Source: Acidimicrobiia bacterium (lineage in GTDB: Bacteria; Actinomycetota; Acidimicrobiia; IMCC26256; PALSA-555). Taken from it: DNA of 64,000 nt. The notes under the pieces were generated by a model. That model searched no databases. It saw only the letters and a program-made list of their open reading frames with translations, and was not told the DNA's origin. Positions 27,554 through 36,215 of this stretch are shown in pieces. Both the position numbers and the translations under genes were made by a program. The DNA lies in contig DATISY010000067.1 in NCBI GenBank assembly GCA_035468285.1, forward strand, positions 836 to 64,835, in the 5' to 3' direction. Numbering within the stretch: position 1 is the stretch's first letter; each line of letters begins with the position of its first letter.

Positions 27554-28183
27554 ATGACCGAACGCTGGGGTGGCGAACCGACCGAACCGGTGCCCGGCTA
27601 CGGCCGGGGCTCCGAGGGGTACGGCAACCAGCCGGGCGGCGAGCCCACCCAGATGCTGCCCCCGAACCGGCGCCCCGCCGGTCCCGGCGGTCCCGGCGAC
27701 CCCGAAGCGCAACGGCGCCGCCGAGCCTGGCTGATCGCCGGCGCCATCCTCGCCGTCCTCATAATCGTCGTGCTCGTCGTGCTCCTCATCACGAGCGGCT
27801 CGGGTGGGAACTCGAGCAACGCGGTGAACATCAGCTCGTTCAACGTGCCGAGCACCGTGGCGTGCTCCGGCCCGACGACCATCGGCGTGTCCTGGAGCAC
27901 GAGCAACGCGAACGAGGTCGTCCTCTCGATCGACGGCGCCGGCCCCTACAAGACCTACAACGGGACCAGCGGCGCGGACACCGTCCCGTTCCCCTGCAAC
28001 GGCCAGCCCCACCGGTACACGATCACCGCCAAGAGCAACAGCGGCGGTCAGGCCACCCAGACCCAGACGGTCACGCAGCTCACGGCGCCGACGACGACGC
28101 AGAAGCCCACGCCGACGACCCAGCCGCCCCCACCGACCACGACCACCTCACCGCCGCCGCCCACCACGACACCCACAACCTGA
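27554..28183 (+). CDS. Membrane-anchored protein with extracytoplasmic beta-rich domain and Thr/Pro-rich tail
   Basis: 209 aa. Disordered Gly/Pro N-terminus, one TM (WLIAGAILAVLIIVVLVVLLI), an about 90-aa domain with two Cys, then TTQKPTPTTQPPPPTTTTSPPPPTTTPTT. No family recognised. Confidence 0.55.
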   Translation: MTERWGGEPTEPVPGYGRGSEGYGNQPGGEPTQMLPPNRRPAGPGGPGDPEAQRRRRAWLIAGAILAVLIIVVLVVLLITSGSGGNSSNAVNISSFNVPSTVACSGPTTIGVSWSTSNANEVVLSIDGAGPYKTYNGTSGADTVPFPCNGQPHRYTITAKSNSGGQATQTQTVTQLTAPTTTQKPTPTTQPPPPTTTTSPPPPTTTPTT

Positions 28184-28361
28184 CCGACCGGAGCGCAGCC
28201 GCGCCGCCCGACTTCGGGAGCGCTACCTACCGGGGACGCTCGGGACTCACTCGGTCGTCTCCGACGAGCCTCGTGAGGCTGCCCGATACGCTGCGCCGGC
28301 GCTCGGCCCCTGGGTGTTGCTCAGCGCTCGTGGCGCGTGCGCGCCCGCATGAGGAGGGCCC

Positions 28362-28805
28362 ATGTCGACGGAAGACAACAAGGCGATCGTGCGCCGGGCG
28401 TACCTCGATGGCCTCAACCATCGCGATCTCGGCGTCGTCGACGAGGTCTTCGACGTCGACTACGTCGTGCACTACCCCCACACCGGACCGGTCAAGGGGG
28501 TCGAGAAGGCCAAGGAGTTCCTCACCCAGTTCCTGACCGCCTTCCCCGACTGCGTGTTCACCATCGAGGACCAGGTGGCCGAGGACGACAAAGTCGTCAC
28601 CCGCTGGTCGTGCCGGGGGACCCACCTGGGGGAGTGGCACGGCCTGCCGGGCAGCGCGGACCCCACGGTCCCCCCGAGCGGGAGGCCGGTGGCGTTCGGC
28701 GCCACCGACATCTACCTGATCCGGGACGGCAAGATCGTCGAGGAGTGGAACACGCTGGAGCAGCTCGACGTCCTGTCCCAGATCGGCGCCCTGCCGGGCA
28801 CGTAA
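28362..28805 (+). CDS. SnoaL-like ester cyclase family protein
   Basis: 147 aa with a GAGGAGGG RBS. NKAIVRRAYLDGLNHRDLGVVDEVF..DYVVH...FPD..FTIED..AEDDKVVTRW..RGTH.GE is the classic ester-cyclase/SnoaL pattern. Confidence 0.85.
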   Translation: MSTEDNKAIVRRAYLDGLNHRDLGVVDEVFDVDYVVHYPHTGPVKGVEKAKEFLTQFLTAFPDCVFTIEDQVAEDDKVVTRWSCRGTHLGEWHGLPGSADPTVPPSGRPVAFGATDIYLIRDGKIVEEWNTLEQLDVLSQIGALPGT

Positions 28806-29057
28806 GGGGAGCAGCCGATCCGGGCCCTGGATCCGGCCCCAGGTCTCGTACCTGGCTCTAGTTGACATAACGGGGATTATCGGCAAGTTCTGAAGCGGAG
28901 ATCCGCACCGAGCCCCAGAACCCCTGTTTGCCCCGGATCCTCAAGGAACGCCCCCGAATCGCCGATGCCTCTTAAGGCTGGGAGGCGGACCGGACGAAGG
29001 TCCGCGTCCCCCGCCGTGCGCTGCTTGACCGATGGCAGCAACGAAGGGGTCCGGATC

Positions 29058-29555
29058 ATGCGAAGACACCGCAGGCTGGCTGCCAGTGGCGTCATCGCGA
29101 CGGCGGCCGTCTTCACCGCCCTGACGATCTCGCCGGCGTTGGCCGCTCCGCCCAGCCACACCGGCGCCTCGCGCACGGTCACCCCGATCGTCGAGTGCAC
29201 CACCAAGCGCAACGGGATATACCACTCCGTCTTCGGCTTCCGGAACACCGGACCGGCGACCGTCATCGCGGTCGGGAGCCAGAACCGGTTCACGCCCGGC
29301 AACCCCGACCGGGGCCAGCCGACCACGTTCGCCCCCGGCGTCCACATCAACGTCTTCCAGGCCGACACTTCGGCGACGTTGGCCTGGACGCTGGACGGTC
29401 AGCAGGTCCGGTCCCCGGGCATCACCTGCCAGTCCGACCCCGCCTCGAGCTCCCTCGCCGGGTGGGGCCCGATCGGCGCCCTCGTCATCGTGACCGGTCT
29501 CCTCGGCTCGCTGCTGTTCTGGCGGAGCCGCCGTCTGCGGGTGCGCAACTCGTGA
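29058..29555 (+). CDS. Secreted protein with C-terminal TM helix plus Arg-rich tail (candidate exosortase cargo)
   Basis: 165 aa from ATG 29058. Signal peptide MRRHRRLAASGVIATAAVFTALTISPALA/AP, an about 100-aa two-Cys beta-rich domain, then SDPASSSLAGWGPIGALVIVTGLLGSLLFWRSRRLRVRNS. The stop overlaps the GT2 start. Confidence 0.7.
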   Translation: MRRHRRLAASGVIATAAVFTALTISPALAAPPSHTGASRTVTPIVECTTKRNGIYHSVFGFRNTGPATVIAVGSQNRFTPGNPDRGQPTTFAPGVHINVFQADTSATLAWTLDGQQVRSPGITCQSDPASSSLAGWGPIGALVIVTGLLGSLLFWRSRRLRVRNS

Positions 29556-30988
29556 CCGTCGAGGCCCCCGTGCTGGGCGCCGTGCAGCCCCCGGTCGTCG
29601 CCCCACCCATCGCCGCGCCGGTCTCGCCCGCGGTCACCGGCGGCCACGACGTCGCGCCCGGCGCCCCCTGGACACTCCTGTTCCTTCTCGGTCTCGGTCT
29701 CGTCCTCGTCGGTCTCGTCGGCGTCCACGAAGCCAGCCTGCTCGTCATCATCTTCCTGACGGTCCTCTTCCTCGTCTTCCTGCTCCGCCACCTCGCCTTC
29801 GCCATGTCTGCGCTGGCGTCAGCACCACGGGACATGCGGACCCGGAGCGGCTTCGACTACGGCTACCACCCGTTCATCACCGTGATGGTCCCGTGCCGCA
29901 ACGAGGAGCTCGTGATCGAGGGTCTCGTCACGACCCTCATGGCACTCGACTACCCCGACGACTCCCACGAGATCTTCGTCATCGACGACGGGTCCGACGA
30001 CCGCACCGGCGTCATCCTCGACGAGCTCAGTGCCCGCTACCCCGTCCTCAAGTGCATCCACCGCCCGCCCGGCTCCGGCGGCGGAAAGTCCGGCGCGCTG
30101 AACACCGCCCTCGCCGTCGCGCGCGGGGACGTCTGCGTCGTCTTCGACGCCGACCACAAGCCTCGAGCCGATGTGCTGCGCCGCCTGGTCCGTCACTTCG
30201 CCGACCCTGCAGTCAGCGCCGTGCAGGGCCGCTGCATCGTCCGCAACTCGAACGAGACCCGCCTCGCCCGCAGCATCGCCGTGGACTACTACTGCGGCTA
30301 CCTCGTCAACGAGTACGGCCGTCAATCGATGTTCGAGCTTCCCGCCTACGGCGGCTCCAACTGCGCGGTGCGCACGAGCTGGTTGCGAGCCTTCGGCGGC
30401 TGGAACGAGCAAACGGTCACCGAAGACACCGACCTGACCCTCCGGCTCGTGCTCGTCGGTCGTACGGTCCGCTTCGACGTCACCGCGATCGACACCGAAG
30501 AGAGCGTCCCGACCTTCCGGCGGTTCTGGCGTCAGCGGTACCGCTGGGCTCGGGGTCACCAGCAGGTGTGGCGCGAGTACCGCCGTTCCGTCTGGTCGTC
30601 GCGCTCGTTGAGCCTGACTCGCAAGCTCGAAACCACGATGTTCCTCCTCGTGTACCACGTGCCCGTGTTCTGCATGCTGGGCCTCGTCCTGGTGACCCTC
30701 CGGGCCGCGGGCGTGCTCACCTGGGGGACGGGCGTCGACCTGACCCCGATCGCGACGCTGCTGTTCCTCGGTCCCCTCCTCGAGCTGGCCTCTGGTCTCA
30801 TCGTGAGCCGCGCCCCCCGGCGCGCCGCGATCGGGATCCTGCTCTTCCTGCCCGGCTTCGTGATCTTCACCTTCGTGTGCACGAAGTCGTGGGTCGATGG
30901 CCTCCTCGGCCGCCGGTACACGTGGGTCAAGACGGCCCGGACGGGATACGGCCAACAGAGCACCGTGGACGTGGAGGTGATCGCGTGA
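29552..30988 (+). CDS. Family 2 glycosyltransferase, processive synthase type (XrtG-associated-like)
   Basis: 478 aa from GTG 29552 (GTGA overlap). N-terminal TMs, then VMVPCRNEE, FVIDDGSDD, GKSGALN, VVFDADH, TEDTD and QRYRWARG (QxxRW), then 4 or more C-terminal TMs. Confidence 0.9.
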   Translation: MTVEAPVLGAVQPPVVAPPIAAPVSPAVTGGHDVAPGAPWTLLFLLGLGLVLVGLVGVHEASLLVIIFLTVLFLVFLLRHLAFAMSALASAPRDMRTRSGFDYGYHPFITVMVPCRNEELVIEGLVTTLMALDYPDDSHEIFVIDDGSDDRTGVILDELSARYPVLKCIHRPPGSGGGKSGALNTALAVARGDVCVVFDADHKPRADVLRRLVRHFADPAVSAVQGRCIVRNSNETRLARSIAVDYYCGYLVNEYGRQSMFELPAYGGSNCAVRTSWLRAFGGWNEQTVTEDTDLTLRLVLVGRTVRFDVTAIDTEESVPTFRRFWRQRYRWARGHQQVWREYRRSVWSSRSLSLTRKLETTMFLLVYHVPVFCMLGLVLVTLRAAGVLTWGTGVDLTPIATLLFLGPLLELASGLIVSRAPRRAAIGILLFLPGFVIFTFVCTKSWVDGLLGRRYTWVKTARTGYGQQSTVDVEVIA

Positions 30989-31515
30989 ACCGGCAAGGAT
31001 TCGCCGTCCTGGGTCGGCTCGCGATCGCTTTCGGCGCCACCGTCGTCGCCTTCTGGCTCCTGATCGACCCGTGGCGCAACGTCGAGGCGTCGACCATCGC
31101 GCTGCTGTTCCGCAGCGCGGGCGCCCGGGGCGCCAGCCAGGCGTTCGGCAACCAGATCCTGGTCATCCCCAACCACTCGGCACCGTTCTTGGCCACGATC
31201 AGCCCGTCGTGCTCCGCGCTCGCCGCCCTCCTCGCGTTCGCGGCCATCGCCGGGTTCGTGGTGCGCGGGGACCGGCAACGACGGCTCATGGCGTTCCTCG
31301 CCGCCGCGGCCCTCATCCTCATCTGCAACTTCATCCGGATCGGTCTCTCGGTCTTCGTCGGGATCCACACCAACGCGCAGGGTCTGACCGTGTTCCACGA
31401 CTGGATCGGGACCGCGTTCGGGATCCTCTACGTCCTCGGAGGCTTCACCTTGTTCCTCTGGGTCCTGCTGCCCAGCAACCGGACACTCCTAAAGGAATAC
31501 GCCCATGAAAGCTGA
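30985..31515 (+). CDS. Exosortase/archaeosortase family protein, short form (XrtG-like)
   Basis: 176 aa from GTG 30985 (GTGA overlap). Polytopic. Candidate catalytic Cys in ISPSCSALAAL, Arg in ICNFIRIGL and His in VFHDWIGTAFG, in the order and spacing I associate with the exosortase core (CSG...NxxRI...H). Confidence 0.65.
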   Translation: MNRQGFAVLGRLAIAFGATVVAFWLLIDPWRNVEASTIALLFRSAGARGASQAFGNQILVIPNHSAPFLATISPSCSALAALLAFAAIAGFVVRGDRQRRLMAFLAAAALILICNFIRIGLSVFVGIHTNAQGLTVFHDWIGTAFGILYVLGGFTLFLWVLLPSNRTLLKEYAHES

Positions 31516-32152
31516 CACACAGCTCATACTGGTCGCTGCGGGAGCGGCCGCGATCCTGCTGGCGATCGTGTGGCGGTTCCTCGCCCGCGCCCGCCAGATC
31601 CACCGGCTGGAGCGCGCCCTCCGCGGCGACGGGCAGCCCGCCGAGCGGGCCCGCGCCGGGAACACCATCGTCGAGCTCGGGCTGGCCCGGGCGTCCAAGT
31701 CGGTCCTCCAGATGATGCCCAAGGAGCCCGACGACCGGGTCCGCCTCTCGGTGGCCCTCGCTGTCGCCCGACGCCAATGGGAACCGACCCGCGCGAAGCG
31801 GGTCGTGCAGGTACGCGCCTGGGCGAGCGAGGAGCTCGAGCAGCACGGCCGTCCGGTGCGTGAGTTCGGACCGGCCGTCACCCGCCTGGCCGACATGGGC
31901 GGCCCCCGGAACCCCAACCCCCCGCGGCGTCCCAACGGCGCGAACGTCCAACCTGAGGCCCCCACCGCCCCGACCCCGGTCGCGACCCTCGACCCGAGCC
32001 CGGAGCCAGGCACCAACGCCGACGGCAACGGCAACGGGAACGGGAACGGGGCCGACATCATCTACCGGCCCGAGGCGGCCCCGACCCGGGCCCGCAACCA
32101 GGACGGCGCCATCCGCTGGGTCGCGCCGACCGGTAGCGAGCGGACCGACTGA
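31505..32152 (+). CDS. Hypothetical N-terminally anchored protein with disordered Pro/Asn/Gly-rich C-terminus
   Basis: 215 aa, overlapping the upstream gene by 11 nt. One TM (LILVAAGAAAILLAIVW), a helical region, then PRNPNPPRRPNGAN...DGNGNGNGNG. No family recognised. Confidence 0.5.
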   Translation: MKADTQLILVAAGAAAILLAIVWRFLARARQIHRLERALRGDGQPAERARAGNTIVELGLARASKSVLQMMPKEPDDRVRLSVALAVARRQWEPTRAKRVVQVRAWASEELEQHGRPVREFGPAVTRLADMGGPRNPNPPRRPNGANVQPEAPTAPTPVATLDPSPEPGTNADGNGNGNGNGADIIYRPEAAPTRARNQDGAIRWVAPTGSERTD

Positions 32153-33084
32153 TGACCCGGGTCCTCGTCACCGGCGCCGGCGGCGCCGCGGGCGTCGCGG
32201 TCATCCGCGCCCTCGCCCAGGCCGGGCACCACACCATCGCCGTCGACGCCGACGAACGCGCCGCGGGGCTCTGCCTCGCGACCGACGGCCGCGTCATCCC
32301 CCCCGCCAGCGACGCCGCCTTCGGCGACGCGCTCACCCGCGTTGTCGAAGAGACGGGACCCGAGGTCCTGATCGGCACGGTGAGCGAGGAGATCGCCGCG
32401 CTGCACGACCTCCGCGACCGCCTCGCCGACGCCGGGGTCGCGACGTGGCTCCCCCCTGCCGACGCCGTCGCGGTGTGCATCGACAAGTGGAAGTTCGCCC
32501 GGGTCCTGCGCGACGCCGGCATCCCCAGCCCCGTCACGGCGCTGGGCAACAGCCACGACGTCCCCGGCCCCTGGGTCGTGAAGCCCAGGTTCGGGCGGGG
32601 CTCGCGCGATGTGTACCGCGTCGACGACCCGATGGAGCTCGCCTGGGCGTGCCGACGCACTCCCGAGCCCATCGTCCAGACCCGCGCCACCGGCCGCGAG
32701 TTCACCGCCGACGTGCTCGTCGCCCACACCGGACAAATCGCGGCGTGCGTACCCCGGTGGCGGGTCGAGACGAAGGCAGGGATCAGCACGAAGGGTGAGA
32801 CCTTCACCGACGCGGCCATCGACGACGTGGTCGCCCGAACGGTCGAGGCCGTGGGCCTGCGTGGCGTGTCGAACCTGCAGGGGTTCCGAGACGACGACGG
32901 GGTCTGTGTGATCGAGGTCAACCCGAGGTTCTCGGGTGGGCTCCCACTCGCGCTCGCGGCCGGCGCCGACCTCGTCGGTCAGATGCTCCGCGGCGCGCTC
33001 GACGAGCCACTCCAGCTGGAGCGCCTTCGGTACCGGGCCGGTGTCCGGATGACCCGCTTCTTCGACGAACGCTTCGACGGCTGA
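32152..33084 (+). CDS. ATP-grasp domain protein (carboxylate-amine ligase-like)
   Basis: 310 aa with a TGATG overlap. Rossmann-like start RVLVTGAGGAAGVAVIRAL, DKWKF, VVKPRFGRGSRDV and VIEVNPRFSGG are typical ATP-grasp blocks. Confidence 0.8.
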   Translation: MTRVLVTGAGGAAGVAVIRALAQAGHHTIAVDADERAAGLCLATDGRVIPPASDAAFGDALTRVVEETGPEVLIGTVSEEIAALHDLRDRLADAGVATWLPPADAVAVCIDKWKFARVLRDAGIPSPVTALGNSHDVPGPWVVKPRFGRGSRDVYRVDDPMELAWACRRTPEPIVQTRATGREFTADVLVAHTGQIAACVPRWRVETKAGISTKGETFTDAAIDDVVARTVEAVGLRGVSNLQGFRDDDGVCVIEVNPRFSGGLPLALAAGADLVGQMLRGALDEPLQLERLRYRAGVRMTRFFDERFDG

Positions 33085-33085
33085 C

Positions 33086-34237
33086 ATGCGCCTCCTCGTC
33101 CCCTTCGGGACCCGCCCCGAGATCGTCAAGCTCGCCCCCGTCGTCGAGGCGCTGCGCGCCGCCGGTCACGAGGTCCACGCCGTCGCGACCGGCCAGCACG
33201 ACGACCCGCGCCTCTCCGACCGGTTCTTCGTCGACCTCGGTCTCGTGCCCGACGAGCGGTGGTCCCTCCCCCACCTCGAGGCGGAACGCGTCGGCGCGCT
33301 GCTCACCAACGCGTACGAGACCATCGACATGCGCCGACCCGACGCCGTCCTCCTGCTGGGCGACACCCACACCGTCCCGCTGTTCGGGCTCGCCGCCCGA
33401 CGTTTCGGGGTCCCCGTCGCGCACCTCGAAGCCGGCCTGCGGTCCTTCAACGAACGCTCGCTCGAGGAGGTCAACCGGCGCACCGTCGCCGCGATGACCT
33501 CGCTGCACCTCGCACCGACCGACCTCGCGGCCGGGTTCCTCGCCGCGGAGGGGATCGACCCGCGCCGGGTGCGGGCGGTCGGCAACCCCATCACGGACAC
33601 GCTGCGTCTCTACGGCCCCAACCGTCGGCCCCCAGACGAGCGCGACGGCGTCGTCGTCACCGCCCACCGAGCCACGAACGTCGACGACCCCGTCCGCCTG
33701 GGCCACCTCGTGGAGCTCATCCGCCGCCTCGCCGTCGAGGTCGGCCCCGTCCGGTTCCCGGTCCACCCCCGGACCCGCTCCCGGCTCGACGCCACCGGCC
33801 AGCTCGCCGACCTCGTCACCGCCCCCGGGGTCGAGCTCCTCGAACCCCTCCCCTACCCCGAGATGCTCGACGCCATCGCCGGCGCCCGGGTCGTCGTCAC
33901 CGACTCCGGGGGCCTCCAAGAAGAGGCCGCGTGGCTGGGCGTCCCGACCGTCGTGCTGCGCACCTCGACGCCCCGGTGGGAGAGCGTCAACGCAGGGATC
34001 GCGGCCCTCGTCGGCCTCGACCCCGACCGGGCCGTCGCGGCCGCGGTGGCGTTCAGCGACCCGGACACGCAGGCCTGGATCGCCGCGGTGCCGTGCCCGT
34101 ACGGGGACGGGTTCGTCAGCCGGCGGGTCGCCGCGCTGCTCCACGACCCCGAGATCCACGCTCTCCTGACCCTCGAGGAGCCCACGCTCCCGGACGGGCC
34201 GGCCCTGCCCCGCAGCGTCACGGTCGGTGCCCGATGA
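33086..34237 (+). CDS. wecB: UDP-N-acetylglucosamine 2-epimerase (non-hydrolysing type)
   Basis: 383 aa. FGTRPEIVKLAPV, GQH, LLLGDTHTV, VAHLEAGLRSF, EEVNRR and VVTDSGGLQEEA blocks. Confidence 0.9.
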   Translation: MRLLVPFGTRPEIVKLAPVVEALRAAGHEVHAVATGQHDDPRLSDRFFVDLGLVPDERWSLPHLEAERVGALLTNAYETIDMRRPDAVLLLGDTHTVPLFGLAARRFGVPVAHLEAGLRSFNERSLEEVNRRTVAAMTSLHLAPTDLAAGFLAAEGIDPRRVRAVGNPITDTLRLYGPNRRPPDERDGVVVTAHRATNVDDPVRLGHLVELIRRLAVEVGPVRFPVHPRTRSRLDATGQLADLVTAPGVELLEPLPYPEMLDAIAGARVVVTDSGGLQEEAAWLGVPTVVLRTSTPRWESVNAGIAALVGLDPDRAVAAAVAFSDPDTQAWIAAVPCPYGDGFVSRRVAALLHDPEIHALLTLEEPTLPDGPALPRSVTVGAR

Positions 34238-34947
34238 TCGCCGCGGTGCTCTTCGACCTCGACGACACCCTCTATGACCAGCGCCAGTTCCTGGACGGCG
34301 CCTGGCGGGCCGTCGCGGCCCGGGCCGCCCTCGACGGCGTGGACCCCGACGAGTTCGAGTCTGCGCTCCGCGACCTCGCCACCCACGGCAGCGACCGGGG
34401 CCACATCATCGACCTGGCCCTCGCCCAGGTGGGTGCGCCGTCCGTCGCGGTACCCGACCTCGTCGCGCAGTTCCGGCGGCACCGACCCGAGCGGCTCGAG
34501 CCCTACCCCGGTGTGCTCGACGCCCTCACCGGGCTGCAGCGACGCGTGCCGCTCGGTCTCATCTCCGACGGCGACCCGGTCATCCAGCGCGCCAAGCTCG
34601 ACGCGCTCGGCGTCGAGCGGTTCTTCACCAGCGTCGTGTTCAGCGACGAGCACGGCCGCGCGCACCGCAAACCCGATCCCCTCCCGTTCCGACGCGCGCT
34701 CACCGAGCTCGGGGTCGACGCCCGCGACGCCGTCTACATCGGTGACCGCCCGGCGAAGGACGTCGTCGGCCCGGTCGGGGTCGGGATGCGCGCCATCCGG
34801 GTCCAGACCGGCGAGTGGCGTGCCGAGCCCGACGACCCGCGCGCGTGGGCGTCGGTGCCCACCGTCGTCGACGCCGTCACCCTGGTCCGCCGCGCACTCC
34901 CCTGGGTCGCGACGGTCGACGAGCCCGCCAGCGCGGCACATCGCTAG
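34234..34947 (+). CDS. HAD family hydrolase
   Basis: 237 aa with an ATGA overlap. Motif I LFDLDDTLYD, motif II LGLISDG, and motif III/IV KPDP...YIGDRP.KDV. Confidence 0.85.
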   Translation: MIAAVLFDLDDTLYDQRQFLDGAWRAVAARAALDGVDPDEFESALRDLATHGSDRGHIIDLALAQVGAPSVAVPDLVAQFRRHRPERLEPYPGVLDALTGLQRRVPLGLISDGDPVIQRAKLDALGVERFFTSVVFSDEHGRAHRKPDPLPFRRALTELGVDARDAVYIGDRPAKDVVGPVGVGMRAIRVQTGEWRAEPDDPRAWASVPTVVDAVTLVRRALPWVATVDEPASAAHR

Positions 34948-34977
34948 CGGCGCCGCCAGGTTGGCGTCCCGCGCTCG

Positions 34978-35784
34978 TCAGAGCCGGATGAGGACGCGGT
35001 ACCGGTAGCGCTCGCGGTAGCCCATGCGCGCGTAGGTCGATTCGCCGAACGGGGATGCCTCCAGCGTGAGGAGCTGCGCGCCCCGAGCGAAGGCTTCGTT
35101 CGTGACGGCGCGGGTGACGACATCGCCCAGGCCGCGGCCCCGGGCCGCGTCGGCGCACGCGACCCAGCCCACGTACCCGTCCGGCTCAGGGCCGAACAGG
35201 ACGGCGAGCGCGCCGGCGACGACGACGCCGTCGAGCTCGGCGACCGCGACGACGCAGTCGGAGCCGAGCAGGACGTCGGGGGTGTCGACCGGTGTGCGGG
35301 TCGCTGCTTCGGGGACGCCCAGATGGGTGAACGCCTGCCCGGCGACGGCTGCGTACGCGGCGACGTCAGCGGGGAGCTCAGCCAGCCGGACGGTGATCCC
35401 CTCGGGCGGGGTGCGTGGCTCGAGTGGCTGCTCGCACACCATCTCGGGGGTCTGGGCCCACTCCTGGAAGCCACGCGGCGTGAGTCGCTCGTGGAGGTCG
35501 TCGTCGGCGCCGACCCGGGCGAAGACGCACCCGGTCTTGCCGTGCCGGTCGAGGAACGCGGTCAGGGTGTCGACCCACGCGTCCGCCGGCAGCGAGCTCG
35601 CCGAGCGGACCGCGGAGCGGGTGCTCGGGAAGTCGATGGAGCCGGCCACCGCGACGACGCCACCGTCGTCGAGGAGCTCGCTGCCGGGATCGAGCCGGGC
35701 CTGGAAACGCGTGAAGGCGCACAGGTTGTCGTGGGCCCGGTCGTCGATGGTGGGGGGCTCGCCGGCGGGTGACGCGACGCTCAC
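34978..35784 (-). CDS. GNAT family N-acetyltransferase (two-lobed)
   Basis: 268 aa from GTG 35784 (GTGA overlap with the NUDIX stop). The C-terminal lobe has the acetyl-CoA motif ARGRGLGDVVTRAV. Confidence 0.7.
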   Translation of the reverse strand: MSVASPAGEPPTIDDRAHDNLCAFTRFQARLDPGSELLDDGGVVAVAGSIDFPSTRSAVRSASSLPADAWVDTLTAFLDRHGKTGCVFARVGADDDLHERLTPRGFQEWAQTPEMVCEQPLEPRTPPEGITVRLAELPADVAAYAAVAGQAFTHLGVPEAATRTPVDTPDVLLGSDCVVAVAELDGVVVAGALAVLFGPEPDGYVGWVACADAARGRGLGDVVTRAVTNEAFARGAQLLTLEASPFGESTYARMGYRERYRYRVLIRL

Positions 35785-36215
35785 GAGTCCGTCGGGGGTG
35801 TCGGGAGGCGGTGGAGGTCGGTGAGGACGTCGACGGCCTCGAGGAAGTCGACGAGGCCGGCGACGAGCCGGTAGCTGCCGAGGTCGGGGATCGGGACCCA
35901 CGCGGCCTCAGCGGCGTCGTCACCGGCCCGGACGGGGGCATCGGGGTCGAGGACCGTGACCCGGAAGTCGAGGATGACGAAGTGCCGGTCGTCGTCGAAC
36001 CGTTCGACCCAGCCGAGGAGCTCGTCGACGACGACGTCGAGGCCGGTCTCCTCGAGGACCTCGCGCACGACCGCGGCTTCGACAGGCTCCCCCGCCGCGA
36101 CGCGGCCACCGGGGACGGACCACTCCCCCGCCGCCGGCCCGTGCCCGCGGCGGACGAGGAGAAGCCGGTCGTCGCTCACCGCGACACCGCCGACGGCGAG
36201 TTCAGGACCGTTCAC
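35781..36215 (-). CDS. NUDIX hydrolase
   Basis: 144 aa. Nudix box GGRVAAGEPVEAAVVREVLEETG. Confidence 0.85.
   Translation of the reverse strand: MNGPELAVGGVAVSDDRLLLVRRGHGPAAGEWSVPGGRVAAGEPVEAAVVREVLEETGLDVVVDELLGWVERFDDDRHFVILDFRVTVLDPDAPVRAGDDAAEAAWVPIPDLGSYRLVAGLVDFLEAVDVLTDLHRLPTPPTDS

Follow-up and report, generated by a model that had tools for sequence, protein, structure and literature searches.

The subject of this report is a block of seven genes, g1 to g7, at positions 29058-34947 of a 64,000-nt stretch of DNA from an Acidimicrobiia bacterium (assembly GCA_035468285.1, contig DATISY010000067.1, positions 836-64,835 of the forward strand), which we refer to as the window. We consider it rather likely that the block is a dedicated sorting cassette in which one exosortase, g3, serves one cargo, g1, and that it represents an actinobacterial subtype unnamed in curated model libraries. 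By analogy with other systems, g1 would be passed on, probably to an amino-sugar acceptor that other enzymes of the cassette produce. The seven genes are:

29058..29555, + strand: g1, cargo candidate, 165 amino acids (aa); in no Pfam or NCBIfam family, recognized by a hidden Markov model (HMM) of its tail
29552..30988, + strand: g2, membrane family 2 glycosyltransferase (GT2) of the PgaC/BcsA/NodC-like class, 478 aa; from HMM, motifs and transmembrane (TM) segments
30985..31515, + strand: g3, predicted mini exosortase with four TM helices, 176 aa; from TIGR04178 and invariant Cys, Arg and His
31505..32152, + strand: g4, putative cytoplasmic adaptor with a single TM helix, HEAT-like, with a low-complexity tail, 215 aa; from conservation and fusions
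32152..33084, + strand: g5, ATP-grasp ligase of the PRK12767/ATPgrasp_Ter type, 310 aa; from HMM
33086..34237, + strand: g6, non-hydrolysing UDP-N-acetylglucosamine (UDP-GlcNAc) 2-epimerase of the WecB/MnaA type, 383 aa; from TIGR00236 and PF02350
34234..34947, + strand: g7, HAD-IA phosphatase-type hydrolase, 237 aa; from HMM

An earlier reading of this DNA, made from its letters alone (the sequence-only reading), had described seven packed open reading frames (ORFs) on the + strand, and all of its junctions were reproduced exactly. The g1/g2 and g2/g3 junctions are GTGA overlaps (29552-29555 and 30985-30988), g3 and g4 overlap by 11 nt (31505-31515), g4 and g5 share 1 nt within TGATG (32150-32154), g5 and g6 are separated by 1 nt (position 33085), and g6 and g7 overlap at ATGA (34234-34237). 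GC content at third codon positions is 0.91-0.95 in each of the seven ORFs, which fits the DNA around the locus (GC ~0.70-0.74, about 72%), so that g1 to g7 can be taken as real genes. Neither a sigma-70-like promoter nor an intrinsic terminator was found in 28300-35300.

The block recurs as a unit. By tblastn, all 22 related genome loci of sufficient length had the same g1-g7 order; since these loci are independent, the arrangement is far beyond chance. The order is also kept in Actinoplanes teichomyceticus (CP023865.1, cassette at about 4.58 Mb) and in a locus from an uncultured genome (L064), and is permuted in Geodermatophilus, where the genes for the cargo and for a PIG-L deacetylase follow the HAD gene at the 3′ end. 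This conserved co-occurrence bears out the sequence-only reading, which had put a membrane GT2 with motifs of the processive type and a mini protein of the exosortase family at the core of one unit, and had pointed to gene neighbourhoods as the place to look. In related Acidimicrobiia, one chromosomal site can be recognized by a marker at the 5′ boundary of the cassette:

28862..28885, + strand: 24-nt site marker TTGACATAACGGGGATTATCGGCA (TTGACATAACGNGGNTTNTCGGCA), not cassette-specific

This 24-mer is single-copy in the window (0 copies expected by chance) and occurs in 12 genome loci and 37 metagenome contigs. At least 15 of the contigs show an occupied site, with the 24-mer followed by g1 and the remaining cassette. 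At least 14 empty sites read gcvP, 24-mer, NUDIX/GNAT, p186 and Lnt with no cassette. Because occupied and empty versions occur at the same gcvP/NUDIX-GNAT-Lnt locus, the seven genes are, on this comparison, present or absent together at one site and gained or lost as a unit.

The enzyme at the centre of the cassette scores above the cutoff of the exosortase/archaeosortase signature TIGR04178 (47.5 bits against 23) and marginally below that of PF09721 (25.4 against 25.7), a family for which precomputed matches are on record for most g3 homologues. The motifs quoted for g3 in the sequence-only reading are all present (SPSCSAL with Cys76, NFIRIG with Arg118 and FHDWIG with His138). The predicted catalytic codons, chosen for their invariance in relatives, are:

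31210-31212, + strand: Cys76
31336-31338, + strand: Arg118
31396-31398, + strand: His138

These residues are invariant in 25 close relatives of g3, and are among just 16 invariant positions in an alignment of 19 divergent forms, stand-alone and fused. g3 has at least 151 relatives of ~176 aa, most of them from uncultured Acidimicrobiia and with generic annotation only. Four TM helices are predicted in g3, and its AlphaFold (AF2) model (predicted local distance difference test, pLDDT, 88; predicted template modelling score 0.79) consists of four long helices and a small β-sheet. From hydropathy and the positive-inside rule we infer that both termini would be cytoplasmic and that Cys76, Arg118 and His138 would lie in the outer-leaflet half of the membrane. 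A fold search of the PDB with the g3 model gave no match better than E = 0.9, and PDB profile searches with g1, g3 and g4 gave no matches.

Part of the earlier assignment of g3 did not survive. It had been called XrtG-like; the exosortase family held, and the XrtG identity was rejected at 20.6 bits against a cutoff of 102.75 (TIGR03110). The best named subtype is XrtS (33.3 against 145), with XrtR (22 bits), XrtM, XrtN, XrtA, XrtD, ArtF and CrtA all below it and no cutoff reached by g3 or by its fused forms. Models of XrtP gave no match to g3 at E ≤ 1. These scores support g3 as a membrane protein of the exosortase/archaeosortase family that no named Xrt subtype fits.

The cargo candidate g1 has three parts:

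29058-29147, + strand: signal peptide
29178-29429, + strand: β-rich core module with two Cys
29427-29552, + strand: predicted C-terminal sorting signal, made up of CQSDPASSSLAGWGP, a TM helix and WRSRRLRVRNS

The start at 29058 has a ribosome-binding site (RBS) and agrees with the N-termini of homologues; an in-frame ATG at 28965 was rejected, as its frame is not conserved across loci. Searches with g1 found no Pfam or NCBIfam family, and no NCBIfam model, CTERM models included, matched at E ≤ 1. Its structure model (pLDDT 50) was too poor for a fold search. Signal peptide, two-Cys core and C-terminal signal are common to the g1 homologues. The signal is tripartite, with a Pro-containing motif, a TM helix and an Arg cluster, and when anchored on the last Cys it reads C-x3-P-[VA]-[PS]-[IVS]…G, TM helix, RR-rich tail. 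As the motif before the TM helix, the clade of the window has DPASS..GWGP, other Acidimicrobiia have NPVP[IV], and Micromonosporaceae and Geodermatophilus have SLPAxGNGTG or ELPEEGNGTG. An HMM built from 57 non-redundant g1-type tails matched exactly one ORF per locus (23-71 bits), and the other ~3,900 six-frame segments of the window and genome loci L002-L023 scored 12.4 bits or less. Every locus with enough sequence encodes a g1 homologue in the cassette, immediately upstream of g2 or of the PIG-L gene everywhere except in Geodermatophilus (L062), where it follows the HAD gene.

A g1 profile gave 3,044 matches in 1.84 billion representative proteins. About 20 of 25 small single-module proteins with the g1 core have the tail, and the large multi-domain core-module proteins inspected are without it. 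Haft has set out what marks a tripartite sorting signal in a dedicated system (10.1101/2023.06.07.544157). What we found for g1 corresponds to this: motif, TM helix and basic cluster stand at the extreme C-terminus of a protein with an N-terminal signal peptide, signal-less homologues exist, and enzyme and target are regularly neighbouring genes. Because of the last two points, the g1-g3 pair fits a dedicated sorting system.

The core module itself, about 80 aa with two Cys, occurs as up to 8 repeats within very large surface proteins (P0143-P0290), and large core-module surface proteins also carry DUF11, SpaA-like, LysM, Ig and PKD domains. Its consensus is PIVEC..G.Y..VFGY.N...VG..N.F.P...RGQPT.F.PG...VF....W.L.G, and it looks like an uncurated domain family, with no Pfam or NCBIfam model matching it.

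Gene fusions connect the sorting enzyme to the sugar enzymes. In Pilimelia anulata (JCM 3090), a single ORF contains an exosortase domain, a g4-like segment and an ATP-grasp domain. This g3-g4-g5 fusion recurs in about 170 proteins, from Pilimelia, Spirilliplanes, Micromonospora, Modestobacter, Geodermatophilus, an Acidobacteria metagenome-assembled genome (MAG) and more than 15 Actinoplanes species, A. teichomyceticus included. All six fusions that were tested pass TIGR04178 (24.9-36.4 bits). Two proteins (P0341 and P0320) append a WecB epimerase, giving g3-g4-g5-g6 fusions, and many proteins of ~500 aa are g4-g5 fusions consisting of a TM helix, a HEAT-like region and ATP-grasp. The g4 segment stands between exosortase and ATP-grasp in the triple fusions and N-terminal to ATP-grasp in the g4-g5 fusions. 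Currently these proteins are labelled 'ATP-grasp domain-containing protein', 'carbamoyl-phosphate synthase large subunit' or 'hypothetical'. In two exosortase/ATP-grasp fusions of ~811 aa (P0346 and P0347), an extra C-terminal helix-turn-helix resembles the N-terminus of an IS481/IS630 transposase; it is probably an insertion sequence (IS) or a gene-call artefact and not a regulatory domain.

The sequence-only reading had described g4 as anchored and disordered. The anchor stood, as g4 has one TM helix; low complexity is confined to a tail of ~75 aa, and residues 1-140, which include a HEAT-like helical region (HEAT_2, PF13646, sub-threshold), are conserved across loci. Because of the g3-g4-g5 and g4-g5 fusions, g4 can be read as a membrane adaptor that holds the ATP-grasp enzyme at the cytoplasmic face beside the exosortase; as judged from these arrangements, g4 tethers g5 to the membrane and to g3.

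The remaining genes point to sugar chemistry. In g2, the motifs DDGSDD, DAD, TED and QRYRW are all present as had been quoted (at aa 145, 199, 290 and 328), the GT2 domain matches PF13641, PF00535 and PF13632, and TM segments flank the catalytic region on both its N- and C-terminal sides. This D, DxD, ED, QxxRW series and architecture recall PgaC/IcaA and BcsA, which also give the best HMM and PDB matches: PgaC_IcaA (TIGR03937) is the top NCBIfam model, at 128.3 bits well short of its cutoff of 422.3, and the nearest PDB sequences are 6yv7, a minimal cellulose-synthase-like GT2, and BcsA. The XrtP-associated glycosyltransferase NF053846 comes second among NCBIfam models (103 against 520). TIGR03111, the glycosyltransferase family proposed for g2 in the sequence-only reading, did not hold (66.7 against 363.95). 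HMM scans of the seven proteins found no CE4 deacetylase of the PgaB/IcaB type, no PgaD/IcaD partner and no PilZ domain. The sole PDB match for g5 is an uncharacterised structural-genomics ATP-grasp protein. g6 passes the WecB equivalog TIGR00236 (230.1 bits, cutoff 210.15) and matches PF02350 at E = 6e-76, and the g7 gene always comes next after the epimerase gene. The assignments as a whole support the earlier description of a cassette equipped with a candidate cargo of its own, a gene for sugar-nucleotide supply and an enzyme that forms amides.

Nine loci (L015, L017, L018, L021, L022, L023, L024, L062 and L064) have an additional gene for a PIG-L deacetylase. This cytoplasmic enzyme is present in most lineages other than that of the window, its gene being inserted after g1 or, in Geodermatophilus, placed at the 3′ end. 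By analogy, we infer that PIG-L, ATP-grasp, epimerase and HAD hydrolase would build an amine-bearing glucosamine (GlcN) or mannosamine (ManN) unit.

On these observations a sorting route can be proposed. g1 would be exported by Sec and retained via its C-terminal helix. g3 would then cleave g1 close to the motif, by way of a thioester at Cys76, and, by analogy with the archaeosortase ArtA, hand the new C-terminus to an amine acceptor. The acceptor would most likely be an amino-sugar unit of a glycan or glycolipid derived from GlcNAc or N-acetylmannosamine (ManNAc), which g2 may build, polymerise or export from UDP-GlcNAc and UDP-ManNAc, with g6 as supplier. At the cytoplasmic face, ATP-grasp and HAD enzymes would tailor the acceptor, after de-N-acetylation by PIG-L in the eight-gene versions. 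The product suggested by the sequence-only reading, a protein-linked or amino-acid-decorated N-acetylhexosamine polymer, is plausible, and is better motivated now because of the gene fusions and of PIG-L in sister cassettes.

A more specific version is tentative, and we hold it to be doubtful: a complete and self-contained protein-to-glycan anchoring machine, in which the tethered ATP-grasp enzyme would make an N-aminoacyl or otherwise amine-bearing GlcN/ManN 'linking sugar' in the cytoplasm, the GT2 would export it in the form of a glycan or glycolipid, and the exosortase would amide-link the new C-terminus of the one cargo to it. If true, the machine would be a bacterial counterpart, in monoderm Actinomycetota, of anchoring by glycosylphosphatidylinositol (GPI) and by the anionic lipopolysaccharide (A-LPS) of the secretion system of type IX (T9SS), and the linking sugar would be the first acceptor identified for any exosortase.

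Several observations weigh against the proposed sorting and acceptor scheme. PIG-L is absent throughout the 64-kb window (best tblastn E = 0.15), and because of this an acceptor amine that arises by de-N-acetylation is unsupported for the window's seven-gene locus. No uronic-acid-forming dehydrogenase is present. The motif before the TM helix varies by clade, and no cleavage site can be named. The tail HMM was run on local sequence, where it marks a single cargo per locus; the genome may encode further cargos elsewhere.

The strongest alternative is that the block is an exopolysaccharide operon of the ordinary, synthase-dependent kind, whose product would be a polymer like poly-N-acetylglucosamine (PNAG) or one containing ManNAc. 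The exosortase-like protein and g1 would then be accessory, g1 would be cleaved and then lipid-anchored or released, on the model proposed for ArtA substrates, with no bond to the glycan, and ATP-grasp and HAD would do no more than decorate the polymer. The top matches of g2, to synthases of the PgaC/IcaA and BcsA types, speak for this, as does a GGDEF/EAL gene that adjoins the Geodermatophilus cassette; such neighbours are common for exopolysaccharide synthases. It is also favoured by the acceptor models with experimental support in the superfamily and its analogues, which are ethanolamine lipids only (PMC7157517; rhombosortase through a citing paper). Such an operon is nevertheless unlikely in our view: an exosortase physically fused to ATP-grasp and 2-epimerase is hard to square with independent sorting and tailoring, and the deacetylase, PgaD/IcaD and PilZ partners of such synthases were not found among the seven proteins.

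The tethered ATP-grasp enzyme might instead act on a peptide, either modifying the Arg-rich tail or remnant of the cargo or building a peptide stem for the glycan in the style of pseudomurein or peptidoglycan ligases. Its position at the cytoplasmic face beside the exosortase is consistent with this, and there are low-score matches to PylC-like_N, Ddl and 'putative pseudomurein biosynthesis ATP-grasp'. These matches are, however, far under the family cutoffs, and the genes constantly linked to it, for epimerase, HAD and in most cases PIG-L, speak for sugar chemistry, which makes a peptide substrate improbable. That g1 is no exosortase substrate at all, with a C-terminus that is a plain anchor or a variant LPXTG-type signal for a classical sortase and with g3 doing something else, is very improbable: SLPADG, SLPAGG and ELPEEG in Micromonosporaceae and Geodermatophilus are superficially LPXTG-like and one g1 homologue weakly matches sortase-signal models below threshold, but the Acidimicrobiia motifs NPVPI and DPASS have no likeness to LPXTG or LAXTG, none of the cassettes contains a sortase gene, and g1 strictly co-occurs with g3 across phyla in a block gained and lost together.

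The sorting cassette can be set beside known systems, of which dedicated triads of exosortase, GT2 and cargo, XrtG and XrtP, appear closest in kind; every membership test with their models failed on score. For L. plantarum, genome annotation has yielded the description of an XrtG system that comprises two glycosyltransferases and a cargo of the 'Firmicu-CTERM' type (PMC12854382), so the statement in the sequence-only reading that no sorting signal had been described for XrtG is outdated. The cassette resembles this system in its small exosortase, adjacent membrane GT2, adjacent single cargo with a C-terminal sorting domain and monoderm host. It differs in the scores of g3 and g2 given above, in a g1 that matches neither Firmicu-CTERM nor any other CTERM model, and in phylum (Actinomycetota, whereas XrtG is from Firmicutes). 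The XrtG system as described lists no ATP-grasp, 2-epimerase, HAD or PIG-L, and no fusions are reported for it (PMC12854382). With XrtP the cassette has in common the second-best match of g2, a weak similarity of the best g1-type tail to CoaP_CTERM (NF053845, 17.7 bits against a cutoff of 35), and a 'choice-of-anchor' pattern, the g1 core module occurring in proteins with and without the tail. The scores are far under the XrtP cutoffs (520 and 35), and the comparison is by model names alone; a literature search found no paper describing XrtP. On these comparisons, the cassette stands apart from both by its tethered or fused ATP-grasp, the epimerase-HAD pair, the PIG-L gene and its phylum.

More distant systems offer models for single steps. 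ArtA has an active-site Cys-173, and in the model proposed by its authors a thioester intermediate is resolved by an amine nucleophile (PMC7157517). ArtA with its PGF-CTERM substrates and g3 with g1 have in common the superfamily, a catalytic Cys (predicted in g3), a tripartite C-terminal signal and a proposed amine acceptor, and for ArtA the acceptor-synthesis genes can be syntenic with the enzyme (PMC7157517). ArtA, however, has many substrates per cell where the cassette has one cargo, the acceptor proposed for it is archaetidylethanolamine, a product of PssA and PssD, and it has no known linkage to GT2 or ATP-grasp. The T9SS joins the C-termini of its cargo by an amide bond to a sugar with a 2-N-seryl or 2-N-glycyl group, the product of a deacetylase and an aminoacyl-transferase, and the authors of that work speculate on a similar amino-acid-modified sugar for exosortases (PMC7468200). 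PorU with the Wbp and Vim proteins resembles the cassette in a sugar pathway containing a 2-epimerase, a de-N-acetylase and an amino-acid-adding enzyme, as a functional analogy only. The enzymes are not homologous: PorU has no relationship to exosortases, VimE belongs to the CE4 esterases where the cassettes have PIG-L, and VimA is FemAB/GNAT-like where they have ATP-grasp. HMM scans found neither the VimA (FemAB/GNAT) nor the VimE (CE4) domain in g1-g7. Literature searches returned no paper that pairs exosortase with Acidimicrobiia or with choice-of-anchor, and co-mention of exosortase and ATP-grasp solely in a reference list, with none in a main text.

What exosortases attach their substrates to has been a standing question since PEP-CTERM was described. 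The cassette is favourable for addressing the acceptor, with one enzyme, one small cargo and a short, defined set of sugar enzymes, and its Rosetta-stone fusions put the exosortase in one polypeptide with an ATP-grasp ligase and a UDP-GlcNAc 2-epimerase. Genera in culture that have the cassette include Actinoplanes, Pilimelia and Geodermatophilus. Annotation would gain as well, as the fused exosortase domain, the g1 module and the g1 C-terminal signal are without a curated model.

Upstream of g1, occupied sites have a conserved leader, whose blocks and hairpin lie 50-120 nt upstream of the g1 start:

28939..29049, + strand: conserved cassette leader, from sequence conservation across occupied sites
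28939-28945: block CCTCAAG
28961-28969: block GCCGATGCC
28976-28985: block GGCTGGGAGG
28985-29005: hairpin
29043-29049: RBS GAAGGGG

In RNAalifold, UAUCGG and CCGAUG of the leader pair in a long-range helix, and a hairpin follows GGGAGG. A structured leader RNA was rejected: nearly all pairs are invariant with a covariation term of ~0, the single-sequence folding z-score is -1.4, Rfam gave no match, and GGCTGGGAGG, ~75 nt from the ATG in the window, is simply the Shine-Dalgarno sequence of g1 in one sister clade.

The 24-mer (found in the window, L002-L014, L020 and L025-L061) is intergenic, between gcvP and the convergent NUDIX/GNAT/Lnt genes in an Acidimicrobiia clade. As it is also present at empty sites of the same locus, the 24-mer was rejected as a promoter, operator or riboswitch specific to the cassette. 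Several empty sites have a perfect hairpin (GGATTATCGGCACCCC-GGAG-GGGGTGCCGATAATCC) between convergent genes, with the 3′ half of the 24-mer as the 5′ arm, and in L009 and L012 a palindrome of ~58 nt includes the 5′ half as its 3′ arm. The element could serve as a terminator or protein site, or be a hot-spot for insertions. Two ORFs separate it from gcvP in the window, and in other relatives it stands directly 3′ of gcvP. One (27554-28183) encodes a Pro/Thr-rich single-TM protein of 209 aa common to 5 related genome loci and several metagenome contigs; the other (28362-28805, 147 aa) was not found in other loci.

Downstream of the cassette, a 307-aa ORF with a GNAT-like C-terminal region (34978-35901, - strand) is convergent with g7 across a 30-nt gap, and the NUDIX gene (35781-36215) overlaps it with its start. 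No such ORF was found in any of the related loci, where NUDIX or GNAT159 directly follows g7. The surroundings of the cassette in Geodermatophilus sp. DSM 44513 (L062, CP135963.1) include a divergent GGDEF/EAL gene, a phage-type integrase and an IS481 transposase, which hints at control by cyclic di-GMP and at horizontal mobility. In several 'MFD' MAGs (L005, L008, L014, L015/L001, L017 and L020), cassette genes, mostly g5 and also g2 and g6, are split by frameshifts, which are more likely sequencing or assembly indels than marks of pseudogenes; a 624-aa 'epimerase-HAD fusion' in L001 may be an indel artefact.

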